Positions 1 through 26,297 of a stretch of DNA of 64,000 nt are shown piece by piece. The stretch is from assembly GCA_038064835.1 (NCBI GenBank), contig JBBTSD010000001.1, positions 28,422 through 92,421 of the forward strand, given 5' to 3'. The stretch comes from Patescibacteria group bacterium (GTDB lineage: Bacteria > Patescibacteriota > Minisyncoccia > Phycocordibacterales > UBA2100). How positions within the stretch are numbered: the first letter of the stretch is position 1; each line of letters opens with the position of its first letter. The notes beneath the pieces are model-generated. The model was given only the letters and a program-made list of their open reading frames with translations. It searched no databases and was not told where the DNA came from. Position numbers and translations under genes: made by a program.

Positions 1-3000
1 TCAGCTGCGTTTAATGCAGAACTCTCGCCAGCTTTGGTAAAGATGGGGCAAATAGGAGAAGTGGCACAGGATGCCGTCGCGAGAATAAACGGGCAGGTTC
101 GTGCAGAAATCGACGCCGCAATAGCAACGGCAGGCGCGCGCGCAGAAGGTGCGTTTACTGAGATTCAGCGATCTACAGCAGAGCGGGTGGCAACTGTCAT
201 TTCTCGCGATCAAATGCTTCTCGAGACCCGTATTCGCGAAATCCAAGCAGAACGCAACGCGTGGACTGAGCGATTTACTTGGGTGCAGCGTAATTTTCCG
301 CGTTCACCTCTCGTTGCCGAGCCGTTAGTAACTACAGGAAGCGCAGATAATCCGAGAACAATCAACTACGATACCTACATGCGCGAGACCCAGCGCGAGC
401 TCGATCGTTTAAATGCGGCACTTCAGCTTCGTACGGCGCAGTACAGTACTGTTGCGCGGCTGACAGGGACACCACTCGGAGATGATATAGCTCTCGGTAT
501 AGTTGTTGCGCCAACAACACCTGAAGGGCTTGCCCAGCAGCGCCTTTTAAACCAAGGAATACTTGCAGATTATGCGTTACAGCAAAGAGCCATTCTCGGG
601 GAAGCACGAATCGCTCGACTTTCCGATGCACAGCTCTTAGGTCAGAGCCCTGTGATTGCATCTGAACGGGCTTTTGTTCGCGAGGCGTCGGCTCTGACTG
701 CAGGCAGGCTCGGAGAACTTGCGGGGACAATACCCATGACTCAGGCTACCCAATACGAGATTGGGAAAAATGCAGGTACTATTCGAGACCCTGGGGTTAT
801 CGAATACTTGAGAGATCAAAATGCTTGGTACACTTTTGCAGGGGCAGTGGCACGGGGTTTGAACGAGTCCCTGGGTGACAAGGGACTTCCACCACTGTTT
901 GGAGGGGGAGAGCTTCTCGCTCGCGTGGGGCGAGGGATAACGGGCGACATGCTCAAGGTGGCTCGGTACCCCGTTGGTTCTGCAGAATTATTTCAAACGC
1001 CTGGGCAGATCAGCGGAGGTGTCCTGAGGGCAGGTGGCTCCCTTGCGCTCATGGCGACACCGCTTGGGCTTCCGGGTGCTGAAGCGCGGGCAATTTCAGC
1101 AGTGGCCGCCGCAACTGAAGCCCGGGCAATTGCGGTAGCGGCGCGTGCCGCTACCGTAATAAACACACCAGCCGCGCGCGAGCTCGCGGCTGTTGCTACT
1201 CGCGCCGAGAATGTTGCTGCACAAGCTCTTGCAAGGGCGGGATTGACTACTGCTGGAGGTGTTGTCGTGAGGGCTGACGGCACAATTGCAGCTCGCGTAA
1301 TAGCACCCACTGCCGCTGAGGCTCGTGTAGGTGTTACCGCACCGCGGGTTGTGCGCGCACCTGCTGGTTCAGGTGCCTTAGCCGCTGATACAGGTGTGGT
1401 TGCGCCGGCCGCTCGGGTATCCGCACCTGCACCCGCACGCGTACTTGGTCGTCCAGCCGCCGAATCGCCTGTTGGAGCAGCGACAAGAATCCGTGTTGCT
1501 GAAGCGATAGGTTCCCCACCGCTTCGCGCAGAGACTCGGGTGATAGGGAGAGGGCCACTTCAGGCTGGACAGGCTCCTGCCGTAGCGCGACCAGTTCGGG
1601 TTGTTGAAACACCGCGGCCGAGCCCGGCACCGTCCCAGCGCTTTGCCCAAAACACAACAGCTCGCGAAATTGCTGTCAATCGATCAGTAGCGCCGGTCTC
1701 GGTAAATCGACCTGTCGGTACAACGCAAAGTCCGGTAAGTGCAGCTGTGCCACGCAACATAACGCCGGTTCGTACAGTTTCAAATCCTGGCTCCGTCACT
1801 CCCCGTGCAGTTCCTTCTACAGCTGGTCCGGCCCGTAGCCTGGTTACGCCCCGTAGTCCGGTCGTGTTGGGCAAACCACCGATAACCCGCGGATTTACAC
1901 CTGGTAATCCACAAGTAGCTGGTCGCGCTCGTCCTGCTGATTTTGTGTCTGCCCCAAGGCAAGCACCGCGCGTGGCAGGGCGTCAACAGCAACAGGCACA
2001 GGCGAACGCTTCAAGGGGTGGAGCTTCGGCCAATGCCAACTCTCGCTCACTCACTCCTGATCAGCGATGGGCGCAGACTTTGGAAAAGGCCGAAGTTTTG
2101 GCCGGGAGCAGGAGCGCGCCAGCAGGAGAAAGAGCTGCGGCGGCAAATGCTGCGCAACGAATGCGCGCCGCAGGACCACCATCAGGTGGTCCTGTTCCAC
2201 CACGGGTGAGTGCCCCAAGGACTGCAACAACACCTGCCCCTCGCCCACCTGTTTCAGGATCTCCTGTAAGAAATCCTAGTCAGACAACGGGAGGACCTCT
2301 TGCAACAGTACCTGCTACTCGTCCTGCAACCGCTCCAAGGAGTACTCCAGGATCTACTGCACAAGGTGCAAGGAATCTTGCCCCGCGACCTGTGTCCGGA
2401 GGACAAGGGAGATCGCTTGTTCCTGTTTCGGCCCGGCGTGATGTGCCAAAAACCGCGAGTCCTGCACCACGCGGTACTCCAGGGTCACAACAAATAGACA
2501 CGGCATTAAAGACCCAAGTTCCCATTTTTGGTGGCGCGCGGTCGTCTCCGGCTTCTGCACCTCGTCCTGGCTCACCGCCGACCGTGCGTGAACTCGTTGC
2601 AACTCGAGCAATGGTGCGCGCCGGCGTTGCTTCGGCTCAGGCAGCAGCAATGGCAACACATGCACAATCAATCGAACAGGCATTTGGATATTCAAGTCCG
2701 CAGGCGACATTGGCACGCGCCAACGCAACTGACGCTGCTCGCAACTCCGTTATAGCAGACACTATTGCAAGTAACTTGGCAAACAGAACTGGTCTTGCCA
2801 TGGTCAATATAGATGGTTTCGCGACTGTCGTTCGTGCTGGTGCCGTACCCGAAGCATTTGGATATATGAATGGTACTCGACTGGTGCAAAGCCTTCCATT
2901 TGTTGAAATAGGTGCAACTGCACCTAGTGTTGCTGTGGCACGACCTGGCGCTTCTTTGGCACCTCGTCCTGTGGCCTCAGTCCGACCATCAGCTCCAGCT

Positions 3001-6000
3001 CCGCGAGTTGCTGGTGTCGAGACGATCCCAAGGGGTACGGCGCTGGTTCCTGTATCCGCACGACGCGACTTGCCAGGAGCAGGAGGGCCGACGCCATATT
3101 CAATTCCGGGGCCACGACAAATTCAAGTAGCGCTTGGTAGTCAGGTTGTTCCTCGGTATGGAACGGTAAGCGCCCTCCCTGTAAGCGCAGTTCGTACCGG
3201 TTCGCCACCTACACCTACAGAAATGCTTGCAGTGTCTGAAATTACCCGTGCAGAATTGTTTGCCGCTCGCACGGCTGCAGCAAGTGCCCGTGCATCTGCA
3301 GTTGCAGGTGCTCCAAGAACCACTATTCAGGCGGTACAAGCAGCAAACGCAGTGGTGTCGCGCGCACTTGATGTTGAACGGGTTGTAGTCGCGGCTGCGA
3401 ATCGTGCTGCTTCAGCAGCTGGTCTTGCTTCGGTAACAATCGATGGTACTCAATTTATTGTGCGCACAGGATCGGTACCAGAAGTTGTCGGCTATATGCG
3501 AGGTACTGTGTTCGTGCAAAGTCTGCCGTTTGCTGATCTGAACGCGGGTGCAAGCGTGGCGGTAACGCGACCGGTTATATCATCAGCTCCAAGAACGACT
3601 TCTGCTGCGTCTGCTCAAACTCCCCCTGTCGGCTCAACTCCTACGCCTACCCCGGGACCTAGTAGGGTCTTTACCGCAGACGGTCGTTTTATAGGGGCTC
3701 CCACTAGAGTTGTTGAACGGCCATCTCCACTATTGACAGATATCTCACAACTCCCTGTTTTTGAGGCCAATATCCCGCGCAACCGTTCTCTCGCAGTCAT
3801 TCCGCCTGCTGGTGCAACGGGGGTGTATCCGACTGCGGCGCGAGGATCTTTCGCTCCTGCTGCAGCGCCATCCACGGCTGCGCCACCTCGACCCACGATT
3901 ACTCCAATAACATCTGCACAAGGACAGGCAATTCTAAACTACAATCGTCCTGTCCAATCAATTGAAACAATTTCTCGAGCACTCGGGCGACTGCCACAGG
4001 GGGGGCTTGCGGCAAACTTAGTTGCAGATATAAATCTTGCCCAACTACAATTAAGTGCTTTGGGGATTCTTGTGCCTGGTGGTGGGGTCATGATCCGGCA
4101 GGATGATGGTGTAATGATTGCACGGTATAGCCCCTCTGCTGGTGCATATGTACTCACCCCTGCAGCATTTGGGAGCGATGCTCCCATGCCTCCCGAACCA
4201 GCCCCAAGAGTACATACGCTTTTCTTGGGAGGCGCCCGACCGGGTGCCCCGGTGGACTTACTAGGCATTCCTACACCACCCGAAGTAATACAAGAGGTTC
4301 GTGCACGCGCTGCAGTGCGTGCCGCAATTCAGGGCGGCACCGTTCCGCGCGAAATGATACCACCGCTAGTGGCGCTTCTGGGTGCACCAACTGGATCGTT
4401 TGAGAGGGATCTTGAGGCATTTTTCATTGCCTCTGCACCATCACCAACATACACCGGCACTGCAATTATTCGCCGGTCGCCTGCGCGAGCTCGTGCTGCT
4501 GCAAGGGTAAATGCGCGCAGTGCCGCACTTGCTCGGGGCTTAGCGCCAACAGCCCCTCGCTCAGGGCTGTCTATCGACGACTTGGGAGCTGGGCTCAACA
4601 GCCTGGGTGTTTCGGCTGGTGCTTTTACCACCAACTTTGTTTCAAACACTGTTCTCAGTCGAAGTGGCCAAGATATTCCTGAATCAATAACGGGAAACAA
4701 TGTACAAAATGCGCTTTGGGGCGGGAGCCCGGCCATCTTGGAAAACCAGGGAATGCAGACTGTTTCGTTGGGAGGAGGTATTGCGGATGCCGTAGTCACG
4801 GGTGTGAATTCTGAAAAGAAAAAAACCGAGTGCCTGTCCTCTTGTTTTTCTGTGGTTGGGACTGGAGTCGCACTTGACGGCTCGGGAGGAATTTCCTTTG
4901 TTTCGCATTCTGCCCCCCCAACTCTTGTGGAAAAGAATGCAGTGGCACAAAAAGCTCTGGGAAATCATATCGGTAACGCAATCAAAGACCTGCTTGTCCG
5001 ATCGGTGCCGGGAACAGCGCGGATTGAGATTTTTGGAGGAGGATTCCAGACACTTCCTGGTAGGGAAACTCCTGAGCCTGGGTCGCTTGCTGTGTATGAA
5101 GAAGGAAAAAATTTCCTCGAGGAGACGGCCGTTCAGGCGATTCGACAAGCTCGCGCATTAAATCCTGATATCCCACTTGTGGCTATTTCTAGGCCATTAG
5201 GACCCTCCTATCCTGGAATATCAGCAGAGTCACCCCTTACGGCTGTATTTGTAGATACCCCTCGTCTTACAACGACTGTGTTTGCACCCGAATCCTTGAT
5301 AGCGGAAGGAAGAGGGGTCGCACCAGCTGGTGCAACTACACCAAACTCCCGCCAAACGCTCCCTATGGCGCGTAGTAACATTGGTGCCGAATTTCCGCAA
5401 AATACTGGCGCACTTGTGCAAGTAATCGCCACTCGTGCAGCTGCACTGCAGGGTCAAAATCCATCTCCCACCCCGCCACAACGCATTCTATTAGTGGAAG
5501 ATGACGCACGCGCAGTGAGAGGCTTCCTAGATGCATTCGAAAAATTGTTCCCCGAGCTTCCAGTGGTCAACAAAGGACGCTTCTCCGAGACACCCTCTGC
5601 AGCAGACCTGCAAGCTCCCGGTATCTTGGTCGTCACCTCAGCAGAAAAAGCCCAACTTGCACTCACGGCACCAAGGGCTCTTTCGGTTGGGCTGGTGCTT
5701 CTCGACAATAACTTGCTTGACGGACGACTTGGATACGACATGGTCTACCCGCTCATTAAAGGAAGCCAACCAAACGCTGTCGTTCTTAGTACTTCAGGGG
5801 AAGGCCGGCTTGAACAACCAGGTGTTGGGCATGTCGACAAAGGCATTGGATTCAATGCAAAAAAGCTTTCAGAGGCCTTGGCACAAGCGGGGGTACTACC
5901 CACTGCAAGTGGCATCTCACAAGCCCAACGAGGCGCAGGTGTACTCACTGGCTACCGTGAAAATCCAGTTACCGCAATTCTCCACGCGCGTGCGGCAGGA

Positions 6001-18000: not shown

Positions 18001-21000
18001 TCAGTAAATAATCCAGACAGTCATAACTACAGAGCATCAGTCTTTTTGAACGGGAAACTTTATTCAGTGTTCTTTCTGTATAATATGAGTACAGATCTGG
18101 ATGGAGAGAGGGTTTTACATATCGAACTAATCAGGAGTAGCGGGCAACCAGGTGTCTTCCAATCACTGCTTGCATTTGTCGCTGATCGAATTATCGCCGA
18201 AGGAGCCACTAAAGTTGACTGGTTTACGACGGCGAGCGAGACCACCCCCAATACTCATTTTGATGTAACGCGATTGAACGCGCTTTATTCGCGCATAGCG
18301 CGTTTTCCTGGATCAACAAAAAAGCCAAGATCTCGGAATACTTACTCTGGCTTTGACTACAGCGTGCCAGCCCGTGCATTTATTGGATTCCTAAGGAATG
18401 TAGGAATTTCGCCTCGAGGTACAATAATCACTCCCGAAGAAGCTAAAAATATATTAATCGATTCAATGGGTCGAGGAAGTCCTACTTCAGTGGAAGTAAT
18501 TGTACCTGAACAAGTTCAAGCTACTCCTCAGCCCGCGATACCACCTGCACCCCAGGCTGATGCACCTGCCCCGGTCCAAGAGGACAGAGGTGCTCAGGGT
18601 GTCGCCTCTCGGTTCGTCGCTACTCCCAAACTAATCGATGAGCGCAATCGTCTTGCCGCCGCGTCCCGAGGGTTCGTTGGGCGCGTTTTGGAACGCGCTC
18701 GTGGAGAGTTGGTGCCGATTGAAGTGGGGCGAGTGAGCATTGGGGCCGCAGGAAATACGCGCATTTCCGGCATCACTGGCTATAGAGTAAACGACCGCGG
18801 TGAATCTTTCTTGCCAACTGCAGTAGGAGGAAGCTATATCCAAATACGCACGCCACGCGTGGGCCTGATGCGCGCACTCGCAGAGGAGCTTGGTGTTGCC
18901 GCTCCGGCGACGCCAAACCTGGCACCGATTGGTTTTGCAGGGCCAGTACCAGATGACCGCGCGCGCTCAGCGCCTGCGCAAGCTCAAGATGCGCCTGGTA
19001 GCCAAGCAGATACGATAGATGAGACACCTATTTCTGACGACAACAGTCTGCCACGCATATTTGAACGGGAAATCGCGGCAAGAGAGCAAGAGATTCGTGA
19101 ACGGGAATTGGCGATACCTGCAGAAGCTCCCACACCTTCATTGCCTGCGCCTCGTACCAGCGCCGAAATCCGTGCTGCCGCGCGTGTAGCATTACCCACA
19201 CCACCAGCTGCACCAGTACTTCCTGCGCCAGTTCGTCCTCTACCGGCTCCATTTCGCCCCGCTCTGCGCACCACAGCTTTGCCATCACCACTGCCAGCAG
19301 TACTTCCACCACCACTCCCGCCGGTGGCCACCCCACTCGCACCAGATCGCGCACTGCCTCCACCGCTGACGCCTGAGCAGATACAGGCAAGCTTTGCCGC
19401 ACCAAGTTCACCGCTCATTGAGCCAGCTGCGCTCGATGTGATTTCTGCGTGGGCCGCTGCTCGAGAGGATGCAGACACAGAGATTGCGAGGACACAAGAG
19501 GAACCAGTGGTGCTTCGACCAGGTGTTGAGATCCTGACAACTGACCCAACGCGGTCGTTGCAAGTGCGAATAGGAAGCGCAGAAGTTCCATTCAGATGGA
19601 ATGGATCACCAGAAATACGATTTGCCGGAGATGTGCGTCCACAAGCGGTACCGCTCGAAGGACGCGCATTCCCACTGCAGGACTATGTGCAAGCAATCGT
19701 TAACAACGAACCGGGTGTAAGTGGTGATGTGACAGCATATCCGATTTCCCGTCAAAATAATGTGAGTAGTGTAGGTACTCGAGGAATCGTGGTCGCTACG
19801 CCAAATCCAAAATTGGTGGGCAAGAGGTTGGTTATAACAGGTATCGGTGTTGTGCGATTGTTGCCACGCGCAGATGGAAGAGGAGCCGAGTTTGTTATTG
19901 AAGCACCAGATCCAACGCGAACATACGCAGGAGTGCATGGGTTCCCAAGTGGGGAATCTGTGGATGCTGCTGGAAATATTTCCTCGGTGTTTGATACATC
20001 GCCATTCGGCGCGTATACCCCATACGAATTGGACGCAAAAATTAGATTTACACAAGCTTTTTCTCCAAGGTACGGGATTGAAGTGGTGGCCGCTGGTATG
20101 TACGAAGGAACACAGATGGGGTGGTTTGCATACACGCTTCCCGACACAGTTCTTTCTCCGGAGGAGACCATGGTGGCCGATGTCGCGCTTCCTGGTCCCG
20201 CAGGGAGGATTTACGGTGCTGCTCTGGGATCACTATTTGCAGAAATTCGACGCTGGCATGATATGGGGATCGTCCATGGTTCGCTACACCCAGGAAATTG
20301 GTATGTCGACAGTCGGACGGGTAGGCCGACGGCTCTTCTCACTGATCTTGGAGCGGCATCATTGTTAAGCGATCCGCATGCCGAAGAACAAGTTGCGGGG
20401 CGGGTGCCGGCACCTGAAATAACAGCTCGCCTTGATTCCCTAGGAAAAATGACTCCTGCAGAAAAGAAAAAATTCCTTGATATTTCAACTGCCCTGTACC
20501 GCAATACCGCCTTTGTTTTTGGGCCCAGGACTCATGGTCTTCTTGCAGAGCAGACTGCACAGGGGTTGCAATTAGAGTCTTCCCTCCCTATCCCTATTCG
20601 TGGCCTTTCTGGTGCACAAGTGTTATACATGCTCGACTTGGCGGCGCGCGCCATGCACAGTTACCTAAAGGAACCAGCCACAGCACAATCTCTAGATGTC
20701 GTGCGAGGGTACTTAGTAAATAGGCACCAACAGCTTGCGGTCGCAGCTGCGAATCGCCTGGGTATTTACCAAGGATCAAATATTTCGGAACTTGTTCACT
20801 TGGTTGGACTCACGGGTGTTCCGTTTACCACAGCAACTTTCGAACTTGTCGAGGAGATTAGTCTTGATTTGGCCCGCGGGCAAGGCACCTATGTTTCCTT
20901 GGTCACACCGACGGTTGAATCGGTGACGCTGGAAGATGTTTCTGTTTGGGCATCAACACGAGAGTCTGCAGACGCAGAGCTTACGCGTGTACAGGATGAA

Positions 21001-24000
21001 GCTGTGGCGCTTTCAGGACTTGCACAGGCACTGCGACAAAATGTGGCGACTATGCGCGCGGCGGAAGCAGGAATGGATCCGGCTGGAATTCCTGCATGGC
21101 AAATAGCGCAACGACACTACGAGTCAGCTGCAGAAGTGCTTGATAATGCTGTGGCCATGGGTATGTCAGGTGGGTCTGCACTGAGCGAAGCGCAGGCGCT
21201 CATGACGCTTGCAGGCGATGCGGAAAAAACAGCAACAGTCGCAACTGCGCGCAGTGAGGCGAATGTTCGTGCTCGCGATATGCAAGGATTTGCACGACGC
21301 ACGCTCGCGCGTATGACTGGCACAGGAAATCTTGATGCTGCGATCAAGTTTGTAACTGCCCGACAACGAGCACTTGGGGCCGAGCAAGCATTTCTTGCGG
21401 GACGCACTGCGGATGGCAATCGGCTCGCAAACCAAGCTGAGGACTTGTGGGTAGACGCTTCGATAATCGACAAGATAGGGAATCTACAGAAGCTTATTGC
21501 AGAAGTGAATACGCTTGCGCGCGGAACGCCGGAGGCCGATGATATTGAAAACTTGCTTTTGGATATTGCTCGTGAAGGTGCGAACAGGGTCAATGTGTGG
21601 GTGGATGGAGCGACCAGTGTCTCGCCTGCAGAGTGGTTTGATAATGCGATTCGTACTGTTGAGCCGCTCCACACTCGGTTGTTGCGCGATCGCATGACTC
21701 AGTTCGAAGCGAATGTGAACACGGCGGTTACTGGCGAGATTCCAGGGCTTGTTGCCGCAAACGACAACCGACCTGAGATAGAATTGTTGCGTGAGCAAGC
21801 TGCGGGTCTTGCTGGATTAATGCGAGGTGAAGCAGACCGCATACAGCAAATGATCAACGAAGGCGGCGTGCATCCTGATGAATTCGCGCTGTGGGAAACT
21901 GCGCGCGTTACTTTTGGTCGCGCCGCTGACACTTTTGCGCAAGAAGTAGATGCCACCGATGTTGCTGCAATGTCTGCGATTGGCCGCGAAGCGCTTGAAT
22001 TGGCACAAACGGCGTCTGGATTTGAACAAACAGCCCGCGATGCAGAGCGGACTCGCACACAACCCGCGCCACAAAAAAGGCTTGCCGAGAGAATCCTTGA
22101 TGCAGTTGCGGCCGCCGGTGGCGTACCTGAATCTGTGGCAGATACTGCCGCACCAACAGAAGTGCGAGAACGGCTAATAGACAGGATTGCTCGTTCCCGA
22201 GCAGGAATTCAGGTACGCAATGTATACCGTGGCGCACAACAAGGTGTTGAAGAATCTGATCCGCAAACAATCGTGGAGGATGCTGCAGGCTCGGGCAATT
22301 CGTTGGGAACGTCACGACCAAATGCAGAGCCAAGTCTCGGAGAAATTATCGCAGCTATTAGCGCGGACGCATCTGGTGTTGGCAGAAGCACAACAGAAGG
22401 ACAAAATCCAACATCTTCGTTCACGGACACTCTGGACGCTGACGATGCGGTGGCCGCACGAGATGCGGTGGCCACCGCATTGAGAAATAGTAACAACTTG
22501 GATGCGGCCGACCGAACCCCTGATGTTGTCGAGCGGGAAGAGCTGAATGAAATAGCTTTTGACGCGTACACGAACGCGCGCGACTTGTACTCTCAAGCGC
22601 GCACAGCAACAGCTGAATCTGATGTGGCGCAATTGCGTGGTTTTGCACAAGATGCCATGAATCGTGGCGATCTTGCGGCACAAGGTGCGAATAGCAACAG
22701 TCCAAATGAACGAGCGCGTATTCGCACAGTCCTCGATACACAAGTAGGTGGTGGTGCAGGTGGACCACCTCCCCCTCCAACGGGAGGTAATGGAGGAGGA
22801 GGAGGTAATGGCGGATCTTCTGGCGCGTCGAATGATGACCTTCCTACATTTATAACTAGAAAGAGTGGTAATGGAGGAAGTGCCTCAAATCCCATAAACG
22901 CAGGTGGCGGGTCTGGGGGCACTGATGACGGAAGAGTTAGAAGAATGACACAAATACTGCTCAATTTGTTGCGAGCGATTTTCAACTCGGAGGAGCAGGA
23001 ACAGCCAAAACCACTCCCACCTCTTCCACCCGCAGGGGATTCCGCAAGACGAGACCGTGTGGTGCCACCCGCTATACCCCCGAAGGGACCTTCTGATGCT
23101 GTACGGCGAGATTTTGAAGATTTGGCACGCAGATTCAGTCCGCCACCAGCGCCGCCTCCTATGCCACCTTCGCCTGACATACGCCCCGGCGACTTCTACC
23201 CAAGATACAACTTGGACGGCACAATCAAAGAAGTTGTTCCGCGAGATGGCAGTGCACCGCGTGGTCCGGATACTCCTGAATACGATGCGGTTATCGCAGA
23301 TATGAGGCGTCGCGGGGAAGATGCACGCGTTCCCGACGGGGCACCTCCCGCCATGCCACCGGCACCTCCCGCCCCAGTTATGCCGCCTCCAGTTGCGCGT
23401 CCCGCACCTGTCGCGCCACCCCCAGCCACGGCACGACCGGCGGCAGATCCAGCTGCACCACCGCCTGCTCGTCGCCGGACTACCGCAGATCCAACACCCG
23501 CAGCGCGCCCTGCTGGCGCAACAACCCCACGCGGAGGTGCCACTCCAGGCACTAGTCCGGCAGGCGGTCCCGGCTCTATTCTCCCTCAGATAAGTAGTCT
23601 CTTCGACCAACTTATGAAGCTCTTTGGAAAGACCCCTCCGGCAGGCGCAGGTGGACTAGGTGGCTCACCACTTAATGGGCTTGGCCAACCCGCGGTGCCA
23701 ACAAATCCTTGTGCGCGGTATCCAGGGACGACACTCGTAAACAACCGATGTACTTGTGCGACGGGGTATGGGTGGAACGGCACGCGGTGCGCCACAAAGA
23801 ATGGCACTCCGGCACCAACTCCGGGGAAACCTGGTCCACAGGCCGATCTCGGCTGTTCGCCTGAAGAAGCGCGGGAAGGCGAAGCAATTGTGTTTGCCTG
23901 GAGTTGTCAGAATTCTGATACTGTTTCCGCTGTTGGATTTAATCCTGAGGGATTCATGGTTGATTCCAAAGAAGGAAAGATGCCAAAGCCGCCAGAAGGA

Positions 24001-24363
24001 AAGACCAAGGCAGAGTTCTCGGTGACTTGCACCCAGGGATCGGGAGCCACCAAGCGAGAAGCAAAGGCAACCTGCTCGATTCGTATTCGTAATGCAAATG
24101 TGCCAAAGGTGTCGCTCACCTTGTCGCCGCGCGAGCCGGCCGAAGGTGAGCGAGTAACAGCGAATTGGTTTGCGGCAAATGATTTACAATCATGCGAGCT
24201 TACGAGTCCTCAAGAAATTAGTTTGAAACAAATCGGTATTACTGGTTCCTATCTGACACCTCCTGTGCTTATTGCTCGCCCAGTGGTGCTTAACTTCAAA
24301 TGCGCTCCCAAAAATGTAGGTTCACCGTATACCCAGCAAGTGGTGGTAAGGGTAAAGGAGTAG
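1..24363 (+). CDS. Giant multidomain protein, 5'-partial: the reading frame is open from nt 1, upstream of the TTG at 34 used by the ORF track, so there are at least 8,109 aa in the window. It has low-complexity Ala/Pro/Arg/Ser N-terminal regions plus GNAT-like, DUF4157-like, alpha/beta-hydrolase, TraB/GumN-like and two kinase-like modules, then Pro-rich and Cys-rich C-terminal segments.
   Basis: A single uninterrupted frame-1 ORF runs from the window edge to TAG at 24361-24363; a 24-kb open frame cannot arise by chance. There is no stop between nt 1 and 34. Recognisable motifs are listed as separate features. Confidence 0.85.
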   Translation, partial: SAAFNAELSPALVKMGQIGEVAQDAVARINGQVRAEIDAAIATAGARAEGAFTEIQRSTAERVATVISRDQMLLETRIREIQAERNAWTERFTWVQRNFPRSPLVAEPLVTTGSADNPRTINYDTYMRETQRELDRLNAALQLRTAQYSTVARLTGTPLGDDIALGIVVAPTTPEGLAQQRLLNQGILADYALQQRAILGEARIARLSDAQLLGQSPVIASERAFVREASALTAGRLGELAGTIPMTQATQYEIGKNAGTIRDPGVIEYLRDQNAWYTFAGAVARGLNESLGDKGLPPLFGGGELLARVGRGITGDMLKVARYPVGSAELFQTPGQISGGVLRAGGSLALMATPLGLPGAEARAISAVAAATEARAIAVAARAATVINTPAARELAAVATRAENVAAQALARAGLTTAGGVVVRADGTIAARVIAPTAAEARVGVTAPRVVRAPAGSGALAADTGVVAPAARVSAPAPARVLGRPAAESPVGAATRIRVAEAIGSPPLRAETRVIGRGPLQAGQAPAVARPVRVVETPRPSPAPSQRFAQNTTAREIAVNRSVAPVSVNRPVGTTQSPVSAAVPRNITPVRTVSNPGSVTPRAVPSTAGPARSLVTPRSPVVLGKPPITRGFTPGNPQVAGRARPADFVSAPRQAPRVAGRQQQQAQANASRGGASANANSRSLTPDQRWAQTLEKAEVLAGSRSAPAGERAAAANAAQRMRAAGPPSGGPVPPRVSAPRTATTPAPRPPVSGSPVRNPSQTTGGPLATVPATRPATAPRSTPGSTAQGARNLAPRPVSGGQGRSLVPVSARRDVPKTASPAPRGTPGSQQIDTALKTQVPIFGGARSSPASAPRPGSPPTVRELVATRAMVRAGVASAQAAAMATHAQSIEQAFGYSSPQATLARANATDAARNSVIADTIASNLANRTGLAMVNIDGFATVVRAGAVPEAFGYMNGTRLVQSLPFVEIGATAPSVAVARPGASLAPRPVASVRPSAPAPRVAGVETIPRGTALVPVSARRDLPGAGGPTPYSIPGPRQIQVALGSQVVPRYGTVSALPVSAVRTGSPPTPTEMLAVSEITRAELFAARTAAASARASAVAGAPRTTIQAVQAANAVVSRALDVERVVVAAANRAASAAGLASVTIDGTQFIVRTGSVPEVVGYMRGTVFVQSLPFADLNAGASVAVTRPVISSAPRTTSAASAQTPPVGSTPTPTPGPSRVFTADGRFIGAPTRVVERPSPLLTDISQLPVFEANIPRNRSLAVIPPAGATGVYPTAARGSFAPAAAPSTAAPPRPTITPITSAQGQAILNYNRPVQSIETISRALGRLPQGGLAANLVADINLAQLQLSALGILVPGGGVMIRQDDGVMIARYSPSAGAYVLTPAAFGSDAPMPPEPAPRVHTLFLGGARPGAPVDLLGIPTPPEVIQEVRARAAVRAAIQGGTVPREMIPPLVALLGAPTGSFERDLEAFFIASAPSPTYTGTAIIRRSPARARAAARVNARSAALARGLAPTAPRSGLSIDDLGAGLNSLGVSAGAFTTNFVSNTVLSRSGQDIPESITGNNVQNALWGGSPAILENQGMQTVSLGGGIADAVVTGVNSEKKKTECLSSCFSVVGTGVALDGSGGISFVSHSAPPTLVEKNAVAQKALGNHIGNAIKDLLVRSVPGTARIEIFGGGFQTLPGRETPEPGSLAVYEEGKNFLEETAVQAIRQARALNPDIPLVAISRPLGPSYPGISAESPLTAVFVDTPRLTTTVFAPESLIAEGRGVAPAGATTPNSRQTLPMARSNIGAEFPQNTGALVQVIATRAAALQGQNPSPTPPQRILLVEDDARAVRGFLDAFEKLFPELPVVNKGRFSETPSAADLQAPGILVVTSAEKAQLALTAPRALSVGLVLLDNNLLDGRLGYDMVYPLIKGSQPNAVVLSTSGEGRLEQPGVGHVDKGIGFNAKKLSEALAQAGVLPTASGISQAQRGAGVLTGYRENPVTAILHARAAGANPFAPAWAQPQVGRSVLARRGQGVTDRADIPRRGSGRWGPVASNIPAVLGTAQARGALNTLGQITRGPGTSPVSSVGAGQQPSLPSQRDPRLAALATRVRAMNTIVVVNARPIPGRTTVVLDAIATLLEEVCGQVPNCRNLELFHALSGSTPDPTRIVAFDTPDGALLAAAQKFAQTFLTDAENPLSSASLRVTLPMARNIGTGFPQNTDVLIQAIAVRAAALQARNPVISATTRIQLSTAPRPGPENPITGKPDPNQVVTNEGTFFEIQNSQLTNVAVAAILDGIVAVAPPVVVDAVGVRGVFGGKRYFSPVLISANARPVSPEAIRADLAVLEVFGDTDHRFDARVNPPLVSNIGLTSDGRMYVFDFGYAQHLMMANPLDARSIDAQMAQMTPGTQALFVSKLNQLEARVSGASGLAFLSGVLGNSRGSWKTAFNFMSDAPRIGNPAAYFRDNLLDRIRQTRTVAIAINPALANLGTRGIARVALPMVRPSQLLTEAEALALLSGPPTLSAIGVSANLIEGATALIRIAQQNGGRLQNPLAQAWYEADMEARQARRFFQSVLNEQNLARGAVSLLAGNNAPPEQMRQAVAYATWIENFVQAVATNDFPNDVADTLLRELQKGERTVPVTGSVAGMLAQNTAARAARQNLPALENRWIELQRAHVSASYFIANSGPNLDPGTGVRDVSFQRSQELVRLAVESEMRQLATQIVPLRQTAALLTPSDTSFIGTLARALNPQTPRRGPGVLTGYRENPVLAARHARAAGADPFAPAWAQPQVGRGGIARRGQGVTPISPAQTPPISTEATLVRIEKMVVDALKSIREQAKGNEDVPKRLIPHIQRLTSGQGVQNSIASAVLNSVPFAELPTLTQAQVSAIALNQVARRMGPGPLSQIFAKGFGVLEKSIGAPAGSTLAGVRVIPAMPGILSPVVAQSVVPKKVSKRAINKIVRQVRTFADEPVRQETPAQTLTRLLDRVGAPLVVNEAPQQGVPAGSIVARPEFTGTYAHTVAEGARDSSQHLLSLPTIIDSFPAHQLRRALRSALQEAAARVAPTDPAKAVALQSVYRYFEGNAARVNVFNILSSDLSELAGILATSEGTVKNAVGMMVERRPRIGDAEYDGLPPTQKKQVVDQWKEIARLYLELVGSTANDQQVIAALGRMPTNDELKAMLAANPVQQTATTFATAGRTTMGRHTRAVGEEVGALNLAGGRSTTRPGQARRGPGGPVIVSAPAPQAAGAVLTGTQPVATPYTLGAMTNESKTKLVYYIENAAGDVMGAMSLVMVNADVPHVILSSLSVLPAYQGLKLGRTFLQEVKNRLVNAGIPVLLVNGIDSESPAFLMYNRSGWVDAGVGDPIQMWMVNDPRGLLTQADRTAIAQAAKQGEKGVNTTQTFALAPDGAVSIVDVPPPTSVTGVAPADPIARPLVAIQSRAPPAAIVPDTVVSDTTTAPVVMGSLGFPIMPSDGTVAGVLEGTFRKLETEMGGIPTLRSSRQFAARTALGLFVRNIANGLANAPKDELHGAVIAIAFQFRDRTLGNYPSNLSAKEIIAEMSTALNEKNPQKFASLSAWSLSQISFALDSVETFDQGRKLVNGWRAKAPDTPEGNKELFKEIFKFDATGDVFVVAGPQMLHVFPTVRADVDRAVGLTGVGAAVLAQPLVPAELGGRVVMYAPTEDVLANYPEIARHEAEHIAQFIANTSAVSNARHISFQRLLAKATEKPSEAVARTPLQSFVHLFANEGNSNQEGLIAIRARGYANAFISGALFQVSMELLSYFVADRLSGAELAERVNRPLYQDPMKELAKKEAERITGILELNIIKATLRPFTLGTFLGAPVVQATPFSLGDSLNPNRIRGRVVIPDYTFLVDEGVRVLSTLTAQGVDREVINALLSGLPVHRWNRAVSAFFAEQSFFVFEATPRDLASGQDLTAIHTPAPRAINGGAVPAASVAISTTKELADKPIDLPSADARGAEYASAPEATPSGLQRSLPPVLSFGPLNLTAPVSAPVSGLFGDEGLESVSTRGVLLESLSGSAQIARQAATTLRDTARAWVAFRRRGGQVNDVTRQQLAGSFETMPIGATSGTAPALHVVLVSGVKSSRQNLFDGAQIMYDTLAQLDSNVAVSVAYGDYTHVDTARQAFGVEHLIGEASRILSSDPNAKLVFLGHSWGGDLSALAVGVLERNPQFVGRIGLVQYASPDPRNLRPFLRAIGVGGALKRLGYTGDVRLESPVFVLNAGRDRLIRIDSSGVQGPEGVVSPRLVPQATHTQCFGPECAGIVAQAIAETARALDRPLAGESALASLGKPVTVHLSPSGNRARFPRVSQTARREVSVLLLRLVLGGADVPGANTAYSGGRRPQISPRLRGETLPPVTTVVDATPAPTGVVSGFGPSMNFLSGPLGRNRGPVFAPPDARSAAADGIPVAQLEAEQVARFDDEIDRALDIIRADSTVGSSEWDRVAALLASDDFVGKVQAAVVESGDTNGIRPAIAKELYAWGEKSGSREATNLVRRVALQIQSSFDASILAADQKAIDARLANFQTQLIKAARDGATARVLRTMTLRFVQQYSGGLESPDVRMIRNTLVEALASTRVRSRKVTERLLAPISPLPPATTPPSNREKLTKIRVATTPSGLFRAVRSALESEVFTNSRVLGVVKKIDLGSIAEGGVAGTAEILAEALTTALEPQGRAPARARYIQRVTPIIAALQTHTKTDITSAFVRAANAPRVAATPRTTRQPLTRAALQAARARAGSLQSATMNTMAQAARAVGVALVLAGAPQSAVAQEAPKAGVSVPSLVQAGIDARLFRGNDAQMVERARKAIVGNGTIIGAINVRPGVPLVYLIGEIHDSLISKKAEEIVDQILPFARNIGHEGISSEEIPAAVGGLHFGVEDLSLYRQGSFLSQMWFFLNARMGRVVNASYQDAQTAEEFVDRLTTDFWESEFGSIYKKKYEENTVDARLVETRRDARDLLVKIVQSLWNTHGPTNVDLRDELDAVNGQIRLSVINQRWAENIEKALAILPGGSAVIAVGARHLIDIPMTPSRLPEYRALIGQSIQGALAARGIGVVIILPNNYTNVSGISRIKAAIAFVEMSAVMRSTAPILAVPPTPKLVQPPTEAVRPSRTKVYERPGRFSPGNGLLPRDKAPTRPNRPTRQPLTRAALRASRERLGGVPGVTTRLSNRFAKVVAIAWRIGHGHALEKHGPTIGTIDPVVLSRIVARTMLAGITISRSPRATVYVDAESRIIVIRDRNSRSSVGVADAGTVYRLPTGSGDPVAYATEKAEEIFKNDVARAIVAEHGAEMIASGQWPVTNPSSLRNYITASMTQGVEQMTPSGARVFVDSKRNTIVRVSPGASVVATAQKFANREALQEGLAQIMGGMQVTPSPTVAIVRSQPLAPGVVEGPRSSVRLENAAFGRLAQGLSVTERTSLKQVFDTLLATNDSFRAQIHAFGQPDVTAVQRDALRPALLAQISAGNQVSATAAQRQSNPRGLVARIVDAFRYALSGMRSGNTSTTNMFGAALLEKFFTNFSARMVQTRNVVQSEQQTTSLTLSAVQPIPGTGALRRFGAAGVEVAKIFFGITPRPTSGSVFATDSFGANVPEEIPSEVIDNLPELNQTSPAIASRVILPPEVLNDGGIDSYPVSRETLVDTIGGRFHPLDTKPTSQAAQFVTAALFKGFLNVSSVVKIGDRFYSYEAPGTMAHPTAGYPAFDATKKASLEADLEILRLVMHDLDHKAPNLHNVALLEDGNYMIFDFEFSHDGFWRGWRLSIETDDRIVQRIMLTKLQRLQSFYQSDEGVALMKSVFARAGVPLEEIFENPASQGEKDASTAAFHARFMERIAIGISDLREKLGPADLSVANRALDNLVATAPRPASVDAPAPAQENDLLDRIDTTENLISALQVIVRQGQLNTADVGRIAEVSVALDNAATAMRNGNMAVAGTEVSVAEALINDLAVSKPALVAQARAAQPGRPLPAGAGVPEGTPLTKAEILGNLWYEENHSVNNPDSHNYRASVFLNGKLYSVFFLYNMSTDLDGERVLHIELIRSSGQPGVFQSLLAFVADRIIAEGATKVDWFTTASETTPNTHFDVTRLNALYSRIARFPGSTKKPRSRNTYSGFDYSVPARAFIGFLRNVGISPRGTIITPEEAKNILIDSMGRGSPTSVEVIVPEQVQATPQPAIPPAPQADAPAPVQEDRGAQGVASRFVATPKLIDERNRLAAASRGFVGRVLERARGELVPIEVGRVSIGAAGNTRISGITGYRVNDRGESFLPTAVGGSYIQIRTPRVGLMRALAEELGVAAPATPNLAPIGFAGPVPDDRARSAPAQAQDAPGSQADTIDETPISDDNSLPRIFEREIAAREQEIRERELAIPAEAPTPSLPAPRTSAEIRAAARVALPTPPAAPVLPAPVRPLPAPFRPALRTTALPSPLPAVLPPPLPPVATPLAPDRALPPPLTPEQIQASFAAPSSPLIEPAALDVISAWAAAREDADTEIARTQEEPVVLRPGVEILTTDPTRSLQVRIGSAEVPFRWNGSPEIRFAGDVRPQAVPLEGRAFPLQDYVQAIVNNEPGVSGDVTAYPISRQNNVSSVGTRGIVVATPNPKLVGKRLVITGIGVVRLLPRADGRGAEFVIEAPDPTRTYAGVHGFPSGESVDAAGNISSVFDTSPFGAYTPYELDAKIRFTQAFSPRYGIEVVAAGMYEGTQMGWFAYTLPDTVLSPEETMVADVALPGPAGRIYGAALGSLFAEIRRWHDMGIVHGSLHPGNWYVDSRTGRPTALLTDLGAASLLSDPHAEEQVAGRVPAPEITARLDSLGKMTPAEKKKFLDISTALYRNTAFVFGPRTHGLLAEQTAQGLQLESSLPIPIRGLSGAQVLYMLDLAARAMHSYLKEPATAQSLDVVRGYLVNRHQQLAVAAANRLGIYQGSNISELVHLVGLTGVPFTTATFELVEEISLDLARGQGTYVSLVTPTVESVTLEDVSVWASTRESADAELTRVQDEAVALSGLAQALRQNVATMRAAEAGMDPAGIPAWQIAQRHYESAAEVLDNAVAMGMSGGSALSEAQALMTLAGDAEKTATVATARSEANVRARDMQGFARRTLARMTGTGNLDAAIKFVTARQRALGAEQAFLAGRTADGNRLANQAEDLWVDASIIDKIGNLQKLIAEVNTLARGTPEADDIENLLLDIAREGANRVNVWVDGATSVSPAEWFDNAIRTVEPLHTRLLRDRMTQFEANVNTAVTGEIPGLVAANDNRPEIELLREQAAGLAGLMRGEADRIQQMINEGGVHPDEFALWETARVTFGRAADTFAQEVDATDVAAMSAIGREALELAQTASGFEQTARDAERTRTQPAPQKRLAERILDAVAAAGGVPESVADTAAPTEVRERLIDRIARSRAGIQVRNVYRGAQQGVEESDPQTIVEDAAGSGNSLGTSRPNAEPSLGEIIAAISADASGVGRSTTEGQNPTSSFTDTLDADDAVAARDAVATALRNSNNLDAADRTPDVVEREELNEIAFDAYTNARDLYSQARTATAESDVAQLRGFAQDAMNRGDLAAQGANSNSPNERARIRTVLDTQVGGGAGGPPPPPTGGNGGGGGNGGSSGASNDDLPTFITRKSGNGGSASNPINAGGGSGGTDDGRVRRMTQILLNLLRAIFNSEEQEQPKPLPPLPPAGDSARRDRVVPPAIPPKGPSDAVRRDFEDLARRFSPPPAPPPMPPSPDIRPGDFYPRYNLDGTIKEVVPRDGSAPRGPDTPEYDAVIADMRRRGEDARVPDGAPPAMPPAPPAPVMPPPVARPAPVAPPPATARPAADPAAPPPARRRTTADPTPAARPAGATTPRGGATPGTSPAGGPGSILPQISSLFDQLMKLFGKTPPAGAGGLGGSPLNGLGQPAVPTNPCARYPGTTLVNNRCTCATGYGWNGTRCATKNGTPAPTPGKPGPQADLGCSPEEAREGEAIVFAWSCQNSDTVSAVGFNPEGFMVDSKEGKMPKPPEGKTKAEFSVTCTQGSGATKREAKATCSIRIRNANVPKVSLTLSPREPAEGERVTANWFAANDLQSCELTSPQEISLKQIGITGSYLTPPVLIARPVVLNFKCAPKNVGSPYTQQVVVRVKE
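2410..3650 (+). repeat. In-frame tandem duplication of a ~620-nt module inside the giant ORF (units ~2410-3030 and ~3035-3650)
   Basis: Protein segments LVPVSARRD(V/L)P...(I/Q)(D/Q)(T/V)AL and NIDG/TIDG...VP E(A/V)(F/V)GYM(N/R)GT...VQSLPF...A(P/S)VAV(A/T)RP each occur twice in the same order. Confidence 0.55.
5936..6078 (+). repeat. Copy 1 of a ~143-nt near-identical intragenic repeat encoding GVLTGYRENPV...HARAAGA(N/D)PFAPAWAQPQVGR...ARRGQGVT
   Basis: Compared by eye with copy 2 at 8240-8382; roughly 85% nt identity and the same reading frame. Confidence 0.7.
8240..8382 (+). repeat. Copy 2 of the ~143-nt intragenic repeat (see 5936-6078)
   Basis: Same encoded peptide as copy 1, with few substitutions. 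A second shorter repeat pair, LPMAR(S)NIG.(E/G)FPQNT..L(V/I)Q.IA.RAAALQ..NP, lies at ~5358-5462 and ~6586-6687. Confidence 0.7.
9780..10050 (+). other. GNAT (N-acetyltransferase)-like module within the giant ORF
   Basis: LVYYIENAAGDVMGAMSL...LSVLPAYQGLKLGRTFLQEV...LLVN resembles the GNAT acetyl-CoA-binding motif A (Q/R-x-x-G-x-G/A). A second, weaker GNAT-like stretch lies at ~18050-18300. Confidence 0.45.
11059..11082 (+). other. HExxHxxQ motif (ARHEAEHIAQ), DUF4157-like putative zinc-metallopeptidase signature
   Basis: A HEAEHIAQ motif sits inside the giant ORF. DUF4157 domains, often at toxin or effector N-termini, are characterised by HExxHxxQ. Recognised from memory only. Confidence 0.3.
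12400..12620 (+). other. Alpha/beta-hydrolase (esterase/lipase-like) module with a GHSWGG nucleophile elbow
   Basis: KLVFLGHSWGGDLSALAVG matches the G-x-S-x-G serine hydrolase motif. Confidence 0.55.
14440..15130 (+). other. TraB/GumN-like module within the giant ORF
   Basis: An N-terminal VYLIGEIHDS and a C-terminal AVIAVGARHLIDIP resemble the two conserved blocks of the TraB/PrgY/GumN family. It is flanked by near-identical TRQPLTRAAL linker motifs at ~14194-14226 and ~15451-15483. Confidence 0.4.
17100..17300 (+). other. Protein-kinase-like (APH/Kdo-kinase-like) catalytic-loop motifs
   Basis: LVMHDLDHKAPNLHNVAL...NYMIFDFEFS resembles the H-x-D-L-x-x-x-N catalytic loop plus DFG/DFE motifs of the eukaryotic-like kinase (ELK) / aminoglycoside-phosphotransferase fold. 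Confidence 0.35.
20200..20360 (+). other. Second protein-kinase-like module, with Ser in place of the catalytic Asp (IVHGSLHPGNW ... LTDLG)
   Basis: GIVHGSLHPGNWYVD resembles HGDLHPGNI of RIO/Kdo/APH/ABC1 kinases, with the catalytic D replaced by S. It is followed by LLTDLG, which resembles the DFG motif. Confidence 0.45.
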
Positions 24364-24444: not shown

Positions 24445-26271
24445 ATGTCTCTTAAAAAAGTTGTTCTCACAGCATTTGTAGCATTGATGGTAGTAGTGCC
24501 TGCGGCAACACATGCACTTACATTGGACGAGCTACAGATACAGATTCGCGACTTGCTTGCGTTTGTAAGCAGACTTCAGGCACAGCTCGACCAGCTTCGT
24601 GGAAGTACTATTGCTCCACCAAATCCTGGCGGTCCACCGCCATCGTGTCGTGTGTGGTACGACGGATGTAATACTTGTACACGGGGCAACCCTGGTGGCA
24701 ACATGGCATGCACTGAATTAATCTGTATGCAGGCATTGGATCTTGCAGAGCGGCGCTCTTATTGCAGAGAGTACTTTGATGGTGGTGTTGTGATGCCGCC
24801 GCGCCCGCCGATTTGCAGACGCCTGCTTGATGCGGTAGGGGATCTTCCCGCTGCCGAAATTCAAGAGTTTCTCAGAGACGAGGGGATATTCAATGGCGAG
24901 CCAACAGGATTTTTTGGGGGTGTTACACAGGCGGCGCTTGGTCAGTGGCAAGAAGTAAACGGCATAGTCAATCAAGGACAGAATGGATGGGGCAATTATG
25001 GACCACGCACACGCGATGCTATTCGCAGGCGCTGTGAGGGTGGTGGCCCAAACCAAGGAGCGCTTCGCGCAAAGCCGATGCGCGGACTGGCGCCACTTCT
25101 GGTCACCTTTATGCCGGGGGTACGGGTTGCAGGTCCGACGATTGCTGATGCGCCGAGTTACAAAATAAACTTTGGTGATGGGAGTCCAGAACAAACGCTG
25201 GCATGTCCACTATCACCGCCAAGTGATACATCACTACGAGACGGCTTTTGCCAGCCGGAAGTGACACATACCTACGGAACTGCTGGAACATATACTGCGT
25301 CTCTCGTTCAATTTGGTGGCTACACGATGGGGCCACCCCACACGATTACCAAAGGTCAGGTTACGATTACGGTCGTAGGTGGCCCAGATATATGCCCTGC
25401 CGTCGAGTACCAACGGCCTATTTGTAGGGACGGGGAAATACCAACACCTGGACAACATCTTTCCGGACAATGTCCTGGTCCATGGATTTGCAAGCCAAAG
25501 GAAGACTCACAATGCAAGATGTGGGGAAGTGGATGCTCGGAATGTACTCGTGAATATCCGGGAGGCCCCGCAACATGTACGCCCACAGATGGATGCTATT
25601 CTGGGTATCAGTGCAAGAAATATTTCGATGGTGTAAATGGCAACAAACCACCAACAATCTCAAGTTTCTCTGGTCCCACGACACTCCAAAATGGAGAGTC
25701 GGGAACTTGGACGATTAATGCATCAGATCCAGAGAATGGAACATTGAGCTACGATGTAAAGTGGGGAGACGAAGTGTGGCGCAACGATGTCAATACGGCA
25801 GTTGCGCTTGCACAACCAGTCTTTACGCAAGCAACAACACTTTCACATGCATACAGTCAGCCAGGCACATACACAGTGAGTGTCATTGTACGAGATATTG
25901 CGGGGAATGTGGCACGCGCGAGTTCTACGGTGCAGGTAAGGAGCGGAGCAATTTCTCCGGCGTGTCCTGGTGCAGTGCCAAGTTCATACTGCAGTGGCTC
26001 ATGGGAACAAGTGGGTCTCGGTGTGCCCGAAGGAATTGGTGTTTGTACTGTTGGTTGGATGTGCCGTCCGACGATTTGTACGGGTGAGTACGCACCAGCC
26101 TGTGGTCGGCCTGATGGATGTGTAAATACTTGCACTGGATCTGGTCCCTGTACGAATATATGCCAAATACCCCCGCCGCAGACCTATGCAAACAAATGTG
26201 TACTTCGCTCCGCACAAGCAACCTTCCTTCATGAAGGTGCATGCAGACCAGACTCAGGAAATTGGTACTAA
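24445..26271 (+). CDS. Secreted protein: signal peptide, coiled coil, Pro-rich linker, Cys-rich region, peptidoglycan-binding-like domain, two PKD-like domains
   Basis: N-terminal MSLKKVVLTAFVALMVVVPAATHA signal; PGBD-like FLRDEGIF..GVTQAALGQWQEVNGI; PKD-like FGDGSPEQT...HTYGTAGTYTASL and WGDEVW...HAYSQPGTYTVSVIVRDIAGN. Confidence 0.7.
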   Translation: MSLKKVVLTAFVALMVVVPAATHALTLDELQIQIRDLLAFVSRLQAQLDQLRGSTIAPPNPGGPPPSCRVWYDGCNTCTRGNPGGNMACTELICMQALDLAERRSYCREYFDGGVVMPPRPPICRRLLDAVGDLPAAEIQEFLRDEGIFNGEPTGFFGGVTQAALGQWQEVNGIVNQGQNGWGNYGPRTRDAIRRRCEGGGPNQGALRAKPMRGLAPLLVTFMPGVRVAGPTIADAPSYKINFGDGSPEQTLACPLSPPSDTSLRDGFCQPEVTHTYGTAGTYTASLVQFGGYTMGPPHTITKGQVTITVVGGPDICPAVEYQRPICRDGEIPTPGQHLSGQCPGPWICKPKEDSQCKMWGSGCSECTREYPGGPATCTPTDGCYSGYQCKKYFDGVNGNKPPTISSFSGPTTLQNGESGTWTINASDPENGTLSYDVKWGDEVWRNDVNTAVALAQPVFTQATTLSHAYSQPGTYTVSVIVRDIAGNVARASSTVQVRSGAISPACPGAVPSSYCSGSWEQVGLGVPEGIGVCTVGWMCRPTICTGEYAPACGRPDGCVNTCTGSGPCTNICQIPPPQTYANKCVLRSAQATFLHEGACRPDSGNWY

Positions 26272-26297
26272 TACCATCTCCAAAAGTACAGATAAAC

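Follow-up and report, generated by a model that had tools for sequence, protein, structure and literature searches.

A stretch of 64,000 nucleotides (nt) from contig JBBTSD010000001.1 of a Patescibacteria group bacterium, referred to here as the window, opens inside a reading frame that continues without a stop for more than 24 kb. The locus raises the question of whether such a frame represents one gene and what its product might do for a bacterium of this kind. The frame belongs to a single genuine and intact protein-coding gene, and the giant protein is a non-repetitive mosaic of discrete modules placed on long disordered linkers and helical spacers. Three of the modules are kinase-like and fall into two unrelated types, two atypical paralogues and one Hanks-like module. 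As for function, we put at about even the chance that the protein is an exported or surface-displayed 'effector array' used in host interaction.

An intact gene of 26.3 kb

In frame +1 the first stop codon after nt 1 is the TAG at 24361-24363, which leaves 8,120 sense codons. Residue numbers refer to this frame throughout (amino acids (aa) 3687-3694, for example, correspond to nt 11059-11082), and all features of the gene lie on the plus strand. The two other forward frames contain 780 and 678 stops over 64 kb, about one per 27-31 codons, which excludes a chance origin of the 24.4-kb open frame. The segment 1..24363 (24.4 kb) covers the 3′ part of a giant gene of 26.3 kb and holds 8,120 of its 8,767 codons together with the TAG stop. 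The complete gene was found by exact look-up of the downstream gene at 24445-26271, which placed the window on the NCBI contig CAYHZP010000001.1 (330,809 bp; GCA_964361175.1); here the product is called as 8,767 aa, at record positions 26,481-52,784. The identical 8,767-aa call is present on an independent Logan contig of 38.6 kb from run ERR3858113. The difference in length puts the start of the gene 1,941 nt (647 codons) 5′ of window position 1. A preliminary description of the window had reported the stop-free frame to 24363 and a protein larger than 8,109 aa, a figure obtained by counting codons from the first TTG at nt 34, and had proposed upstream extension as a check. The frame is confirmed in the window, and the larger size is borne out by these two other assemblies.

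The Logan and NCBI contigs are 100% identical to the window DNA across the last 9.9 kb of the gene. The 24.4 kb gave no tandem repeats and no direct DNA repeat larger than one of 150 nt at 80% identity, which makes a collapse or chimera driven by repeats unlikely. The order GC1>GC2>GC3 holds throughout the gene, codon usage is uniform along its length, and its relative synonymous codon usage correlates with that of 17 neighbouring genes at r=0.75, compared to 0.31-0.32 for shifted frames. Seven internal duplicated peptide segments were identified, and in all of them the nonsynonymous rate (dN) is well below the synonymous rate (dS), which is direct evidence of translation and of constraint on the frame. 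In a short-read metagenome such as the source, low-complexity tracts could in principle mis-assemble, but with a frame beyond chance, two assemblers in agreement on sequence and gene call, no long near-identical repeats, even codon usage and purifying selection on the duplicates, it is very unlikely that the gene is an artefact of assembly or annotation, whether a chimera produced by repeats or a fusion of several genes or pseudogenes into one frame. The earlier concern over a chimeric assembly is largely answered.

Runs ERR3858113-15 are AquaDiva/Hainich groundwater metagenomes (PRJEB36523; PMC11549363), and the giant gene is that of an uncultivated bacterium of groundwater Patescibacteria. 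Among GTDB species representatives, the best matches to the EF-G encoded in the window (58092-60353) are 70-71% identical to it. Because these best matches are all metagenome-assembled genomes of Candidatus Kaiserbacteria, Paceibacterota or Patescibacteria, the host is, on EF-G sequence, a bacterium of the candidate phyla radiation (CPR), of Parcubacteria/Paceibacteria type and nearest to Kaiserbacteria, with no close representative. The complete Kaiserbacteria chromosome among the EF-G matches is 993 kb in size. For a genome of ~1 Mb, giving ~2.6% of its DNA to this one gene would be a heavy investment.

Modules, linkers and terminal repeats

In the window part of the protein the modules are ordered as follows: receiver-like, atypical kinase 1, GNAT acetyltransferase, a region with an HExxH motif, lipase-like, TraB/GumN-like, atypical kinase 2 and Hanks-like, and then Gly/Pro stalks and a Cys-bearing C-terminus. 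The linkers are Ala/Pro/Arg-rich and poor in Cys, Lys and His.

Kinase-like motifs are located at aa 2340-2371, 5730-5755 and 6759-6784. The first two sit in the atypical kinase-fold modules. Module 1 (6772..7407, aa 2258-2469) is a paralogue of module 2 (16807..17550, aa 5603-5850), as seen in an internal BLAST comparison and by a score of 140 bits (E 2e-41) with the hidden Markov model (HMM) of the family; it keeps the family-invariant D-x-D-H, N and D-F-G residues. In module 2, D5730, D5732, N5740 and D5753 are invariant in 30/30 sequences of the family alignment. Both modules retain every invariant residue of the family, which has a bilobal kinase fold. The order of the invariant D/D/N/D fits that of a catalytic Asp and Mg-binding Asn/Asp, for which these residues are candidates on sequence order.

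An exhaustive HMMER search with aa 5150-6349 against 1.84 billion cluster representatives gave 28 matches at E<=1e-3 (best E 1.8e-13), every one of them a stand-alone protein of 170-330 aa which aligns to aa ~5614-5851. These relatives are rare singletons that carry no annotation beyond 'hypothetical protein'. When the ten top matches were searched with Pfam, nine had no match and one matched NOD2_WH weakly (E=0.018). No Pfam, NCBIfam or PDB sequence match was obtained for the family, and a profile search of the PDB gave only designed helical proteins, which are spurious. Module 2 is a full copy of this rare stand-alone family of ~250 aa; since it spans the full length of the stand-alone proteins, the comparison indicates that a complete stand-alone gene was probably captured into the giant open reading frame (ORF). 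The family, for which neither Pfam nor NCBIfam has a model, forms a new and small branch within the kinase-like superfamily. Identity to CtkA (H. pylori), PI4K type II-alpha, Fam20/Golgi casein kinase, actin-fragmin kinase, Legionella MavQ and CotH is only 8-13%, and the D-to-N spacing varies within the new family. The family matters independently of what the giant protein does and is biochemically testable.

We note that stand-alone paralogue pairs of the kinase family also occur a few kb from recG on two unrelated metagenomic contigs (L085, 8001-9549, and L088, 7616-9576), which suggests that the family may be distributed within Patescibacteria. Contig L088 also encodes a PG_binding_1/PKD protein with 37% identity over 134 aa to the product of the window gene at 26773-29028.

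The third kinase-like module (19798..20700, aa ~6600-6900) resembles Hanks-type (eukaryotic-like) kinases and was recognised from its PDB sequence matches. All seven matches at E<=10 are protein kinases, among them Stt7 (E 0.0038), LegK4 (0.049), PIM-2, YopO and CaMKII. In the Stt7, LegK4 and PIM-2 alignments, the HRD catalytic loop lies opposite GIVHGSLHPGN, and DFG opposite LTDLG. The giant protein has HGS for HRD and DLG for DFG, and Pfam Pkinase has no match anywhere in it, including this segment. Within H-G-S-L-H-P-G-N (aa 6759-6766), Ser6761 stands in place of the catalytic Asp, with D-L-G at 6782; the module is therefore likely to be a pseudokinase or to have a non-canonical activity. 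Two kinase-like modules had been described previously. The kinase likeness is confirmed at the level of the fold, but there are three modules of two unrelated types, one of which lacks the catalytic Asp.

The GNAT acetyltransferase domain (9751..10056, aa 3251-3352) is matched by Pfam Acetyltransf_1 (PF00583) over aa 3266-3344 with 22.7 bits, above the gathering cut-off of 20.7 and in agreement with the preliminary description; RimI models match weakly. Its acetyl-CoA loop, identified by eye as Y-Q-G-L-K-L-G-R at aa ~3302-3309, fits Q/R-x-x-G-x-G/A. By eye, aa ~5985-6130 had looked like a further GNAT, but this candidate was dropped, as it has no similarity to the first (z = -0.2) and no Pfam match. 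A twin repeat or toxin-like domain considered at aa 5170-5400 ('GHGHALEKHG') has weak internal similarity (z 2.2) and no database match, and the segment is left unassigned.

The module at 12259..12810 (aa ~4087-4270) resembles alpha/beta-hydrolases of the class-3 lipase type. Pfam Lipase_3 matches the GHSWG segment, accompanied by cutinase, DUF676 and Abhydrolase matches, and nine of the ten weak PDB matches are class-3 lipases. The GHSWGG sequence at aa 4164-4169 (nt 12490-12507) contains the nucleophile elbow G-H-S4166-W-G; FLGHSWGG is aligned to FTGHSLGG and GYTGDV to THTNDI (weakly, E 0.04), covering the Ser elbow and the catalytic Asp region. The earlier esterase-like assignment is supported by these consistent matches, though they fall just below threshold. 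The TraB/PrgY/GumN (Tiki-type)-like module (14488..15120, aa ~4830-5040) carries two motifs, GEIH (aa 4842) and GARHL (aa 5028), which fit the paired GxxH motifs of these proteins. The segment has no PDB sequence match. Its previous assignment is plausible on these motifs, but the Pfam score is under threshold.

The zinc-protease-type motif HEAEHIAQ (11059..11082, aa 3687-3694) is located within a mostly helical region (aa ~3450-3960). It is the sole HExxH in the 8,120 aa and fits HExxHxxQ. The region had been called DUF4157-like; the motif is present, but DUF4157 (PF13699) gave no match at E<=0.1 with the whole protein or at E<=10 with aa 3521-3960, and there was no other Pfam or PDB match. 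A single-sequence AlphaFold 2 model of the region had a predicted local distance difference test (pLDDT) score of 36.6 and is unusable. The receiver (CheY)-like module (5482..5880, aa ~1828-1960) is weak. It was located with Pfam Response_reg and by motifs seen by eye: LLVEDD at aa 1830-1835, LVLLD with D1902, S/T at 1930-1932 and K1947.

More than half of the residues of the giant protein lie within low-entropy or Ala/Pro/Arg-rich tracts. The protein is 14.5% Ala and 8.2% Pro. Cys makes up 0.2% (1.6% in the neighbouring gene products), Lys is halved (1.9% against 4.1%), His is cut to a third (0.8% against 2.5%) and aromatic residues are also depleted relative to the neighbours. The Lys, His and Cys depletion could reflect a disorder-type composition or selection tied to export or host exposure. 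An Ala/Pro/Arg/Val/Ser-rich tract identified by composition and entropy occupies ~3.7 kb (991..4680, aa ~331-1560). Low complexity of this kind had been assigned to the first 3.6 kb; the tract is real but begins at nt ~1,000 and runs to ~4,700, the first ~330 aa of the window part having ordinary composition. The tract holds a diverged ~200-aa tandem duplication (aa 801-1000 and 1010-1200, nt 2401-3600), the copies of which share 47-56% aa identity with dN<<dS.

Toward the C-terminus, an Ala/Glu/Arg-rich and presumably helical part (aa ~7005-7560) is followed by Gly- and Pro-rich stretches (together 21013..23640). The Gly-rich stretch covers aa 7578-7645, and Pro-rich stretches are found at aa 6300-6470 and 7655-7880. 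The Cys-bearing C-terminal region (23710..24360) contains an EGF-like C-x12-C-x-C-x10-C motif at aa 7904-7930. Two repeats of ~90 aa, both of which have paired Cys, lie at aa ~7945-8120 (local alignment z 6.0; 0/500 shuffles as good). The last 220 aa hold ten of the 16 Cys of the window part. Pfam gave only spurious Cys-rich matches in the C-terminal region, and we presume the repeats to be an extracellular beta-sandwich. The Pro-rich and Gly-rich segments and the Cys-bearing C-terminus of the preliminary description are all present.

Four linker motifs, labelled B to E, were detected as internal duplicates: B at 5347-5493 and 6574-6717, C at 5923-6078 and 8227-8382, D at 14185-14310 and 15442-15567, and E at 19381-19515 and 20878-21012. 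Each occurs exactly twice, directly before or after modules, and all four are under purifying selection. The motif C pair has 82% aa identity and 79% nt identity, with dN 0.11 and dS 0.72. It is possible that the motifs are processing sites, per-module targeting elements or relics of cassette duplication.

Candidate functions

The effector reading supposes that the protein is exported or surface-displayed by an episymbiont-type bacterium. Binding to the wall or to the host would fall to the stalk and to the C-terminal repeats, which are capable of forming disulfides. The partner cell would offer targets, on its surface or inside it, for the enzyme modules to phosphorylate, acetylate, de-esterify or cleave. 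The linker motifs could serve as processing or delivery signals which release or address single modules. This reading is favoured because Cys is scarce except in the C-terminal repeats, because adjacent genes encode wall proteins, because the kinase modules resemble secreted effectors and because CPR giant proteins have already been tied to host attachment (PMC8080830). Among the nearest matches to the kinase modules, in structure or in sequence, are the secreted effectors CtkA, MavQ, LegK4 and YopO, of which CtkA (PMC5536186) and LegK4 (PMC4588518) have been described as such.

The adjacent genes are the next two on the same strand, and both products are Cys-rich and have N-termini which by eye are signal-peptide-like and hydrophobic, as well as PG_binding_1. 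The first (24445-26271, 608 aa) combines PG_binding_1 with PKD. The second (26773-29028, 751 aa) has a cupredoxin domain, PG_binding_1 and ~7 Cys-containing repeats of ~55 aa. The gap between the giant gene and the first of these is 82 nt and has no terminator-like site, thus the two wall-associated genes (24445-29028) may be co-transcribed partners of the giant gene.

CPR bacteria (Patescibacteria) make up a large share of groundwater bacteria, and the way in which they recognise and exploit their hosts is largely unexplained. If the effector reading is true, a protein with exported kinases, acetyltransferase, lipase and proteases would be a concrete candidate for an episymbiosis toolkit, and a multi-effector toxin architecture would have arisen outside Proteobacteria.

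A number of observations weigh against this reading. No signal peptide, sorting signal or transmembrane helix was found in the 8,120 aa of the window part, where no segment is hydrophobic enough for such a helix, and no secretion-system gene was seen. The GNAT is the only domain in the giant protein above a curated threshold. Response_reg (PF00072) scores 14.2 bits (E=0.051), under its cut-off of 30.2, with one PDB response regulator at E=0.15. Lipase_3 (PF01764) stays below its threshold of 22.0 with 21.4 bits (E 2.5e-4) for the isolated segment and 17.5 bits for a long query, and TraB_PrgY_gumN (PF01963) has 20.8 bits against 26.8 (E=3.8e-4) over the C-terminal third of the model only. The HExxH is a bare motif without a domain match and the Hanks-like module has Ser for its catalytic Asp. 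Processing at the linker motifs is pure conjecture, and the receiver-like domain and the kinases would suit a cytoplasmic signalling protein too. Finally, no orthologues showing a conserved architecture were found, in protein libraries that evidently do not hold the giant protein and in contig scans able to show close relatives only.

Word-index protein searches gave no relatives for aa 3230-4300, aa 4780-6900 or the alignment of the kinase family, in libraries from which the giant protein itself is evidently absent. The exhaustive HMMER search with aa 5150-6349 found no giant homologue and did not return the query protein, so very large proteins are apparently missing from that collection. 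Contig scans based on exact matches of eight residues, by which only close relatives are detectable, found none in genome contigs (aa 1-340), metagenome contigs (aa 3230-6960 and alignment A2) or viral contigs. No match was obtained by tblastn against plasmids and phages.

The alternative that survives best is a mainly structural one, in which the protein is a surface fibre or adhesin, a filament for attachment as proposed for other CPR giants, and the enzyme-like modules are decayed or accessory. The large share of low-entropy and Ala/Pro/Arg-rich sequence, the Cys in the C-terminal repeats, the lost catalytic Asp of the Hanks-like module and the sub-threshold scores of most enzyme matches all favour a fibre, as does the reading of the Vampirococcus giants as attachment fibres (PMC8080830). 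However, no PKD, Ig, FN3, cadherin, beta-helix or integrin repeats were detected in the 8,120 aa, and there is little repetition of any kind in the protein. All the family-invariant residues are present in the two atypical kinase modules, and the acetyl-CoA loop of the GNAT is kept. We consider a fibre rather unlikely.

The protein could instead be a cytoplasmic signalling or regulatory scaffold, like the giant proteins with receivers and phosphatases that have been reported from Actinobacteria. Three kinase-like modules, a receiver-like module with its DD, D, S/T and K positions, and the lack of a transmembrane helix in the part of the protein seen would suit such a role, and CheY-like receivers are listed in giant proteins (West-Roberts et al., bioRxiv 10.1101/2023.11.21.568195). 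The receiver match is weak, however (E 0.05), the adjacent and possibly co-transcribed genes encode secreted wall proteins, and Cys-paired EGF-like C-terminal repeats combined with extreme Cys depletion elsewhere fit export better. We judge the scaffold unlikely.

Surroundings of the gene and likeness to known giant proteins

Beyond the two wall-associated genes, ordinary housekeeping genes are found further downstream. No secretion-system, immunity or acyltransferase gene was seen in the 40 kb downstream, and the giant protein has no similarity to any neighbouring gene product. PADLOC, PHROGs and NCBIfam gave nothing useful, and Rfam and tRNA scans were empty.

Several features of the surrounding DNA are recorded as side observations. 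In a single ORF at 29032-30528, a YkuD L,D-transpeptidase domain is joined with a D-Ala-D-Ala carboxypeptidase domain of the S11 type. The region 34322-38639 encodes an LplA/B lipoate ligase, an E2 acyltransferase in which no lipoyl domain was detected and a fused E1 alpha+beta 2-oxoacid dehydrogenase (753 aa), a set that is unusual for a Patescibacteria genome. Two ORFs have no Pfam match, one at 45677-46483 (268 aa, signal-peptide-like N-terminus) and one at 48631-49914 (427 aa, Cys/His/Trp-rich). The str operon is interrupted, rpsL (50004-50414) and rpsG (50439-50900) being set apart from fusA (58092-60353). Between rpsG and fusA lie a nitroreductase-like gene (50963-51694, minus strand), a YcaO gene (51687-53102, minus strand), an AMMECR1+YcaO fusion (53215-56385, plus strand) and two unannotated ORFs. 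This insert could be a small azoline-type cluster for a ribosomally synthesised and post-translationally modified peptide, or a system which modifies ribosomal protein S12. In seven related Patescibacteria (L005, L006, L043, L060, L072, L074 and L083) EF-G spans ~3.0-3.3 kb by tblastn against 2.26 kb in the window, which suggests that some relatives carry insertions, possibly inteins, that the window EF-G does not have.

Among known giant proteins, the surface proteins of Vampirococcus lugosii, a predatory CPR bacterium, are 1,392-4,163 aa long and have been linked to host attachment (PMC8080830). They share with the window protein the superphylum, a very large gene in a very small genome and a presumed role at the host-cell interface. 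The window protein is more than twice as long, and has no membrane segment in the 8,120 aa seen. It does not have the WD40, TPR, PKD, integrin, fibronectin and DUF11 domains of the Vampirococcus proteins but enzyme-like modules instead.

Giants of the Omnitrophota type (West-Roberts et al. 2023, bioRxiv 10.1101/2023.11.21.568195) are at least 30,000 aa long, with many transmembrane regions and a SecA DEAD domain of divergent sequence. They carry dockerin, beta-helix or carbohydrate-active domains and lie beside type II secretion system genes (bioRxiv 10.1101/2023.11.21.568195). Like the window protein they are multi-domain, largely unannotatable products of ultra-small groundwater bacteria with CheY-like receivers, and in both cases structure prediction was needed to recover the domains. 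The hallmarks differ: the window gene encodes 8,767 aa, and its window part has no transmembrane-like segment and no SecA match. Dockerin, beta-helix or carbohydrate-active domains and adjacent type II secretion system genes were likewise not found.

MARTX toxins are characterised by RTX/glycine-rich A/B/C repeats, a C80 cysteine protease and an adjacent type I secretion system and acyltransferase. The shared concept is that of a huge Cys-poor polypeptide in which unrelated effector modules lie between linkers and sequences recur at module borders. On this likeness the protein could be an independently evolved, self-processing MARTX-like array, an orphan poor in Cys and Lys with at least eight enzyme-like modules, its linker motifs acting as cleavage or delivery signals into a bacterial host. 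Such an array would contain two copies of an undescribed CtkA/PI4KII/Fam20-like kinase family captured from stand-alone genes, together with a Hanks-type pseudokinase. There is, however, no sequence relationship to MARTX, and none of the MARTX hallmarks (RTX/glycine-rich repeats, C80, type I secretion system or acyltransferase) was detected, whether within the gene or over the next 40 kb downstream; we think this form of the effector reading distinctly unlikely.

The preliminary description had likened the protein to polymorphic toxins. This comparison is not supported, as no RHS, filamentous-haemagglutinin, pre-toxin or C-terminal toxin domain was found in the 8,120 aa, the C-terminus consists of Cys-bearing repeats, and no obvious immunity gene was seen, the next gene downstream encoding the 608-aa PG_binding_1/PKD protein. 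The giant protein therefore stands outside polymorphic toxins, MARTX and the Omnitrophota giants, and by analogy would work most like a modular multi-effector protein. It is of a known kind, that of giant multi-domain proteins from ultra-small uncultivated bacteria, and its modest novelty lies in the atypical kinase family.

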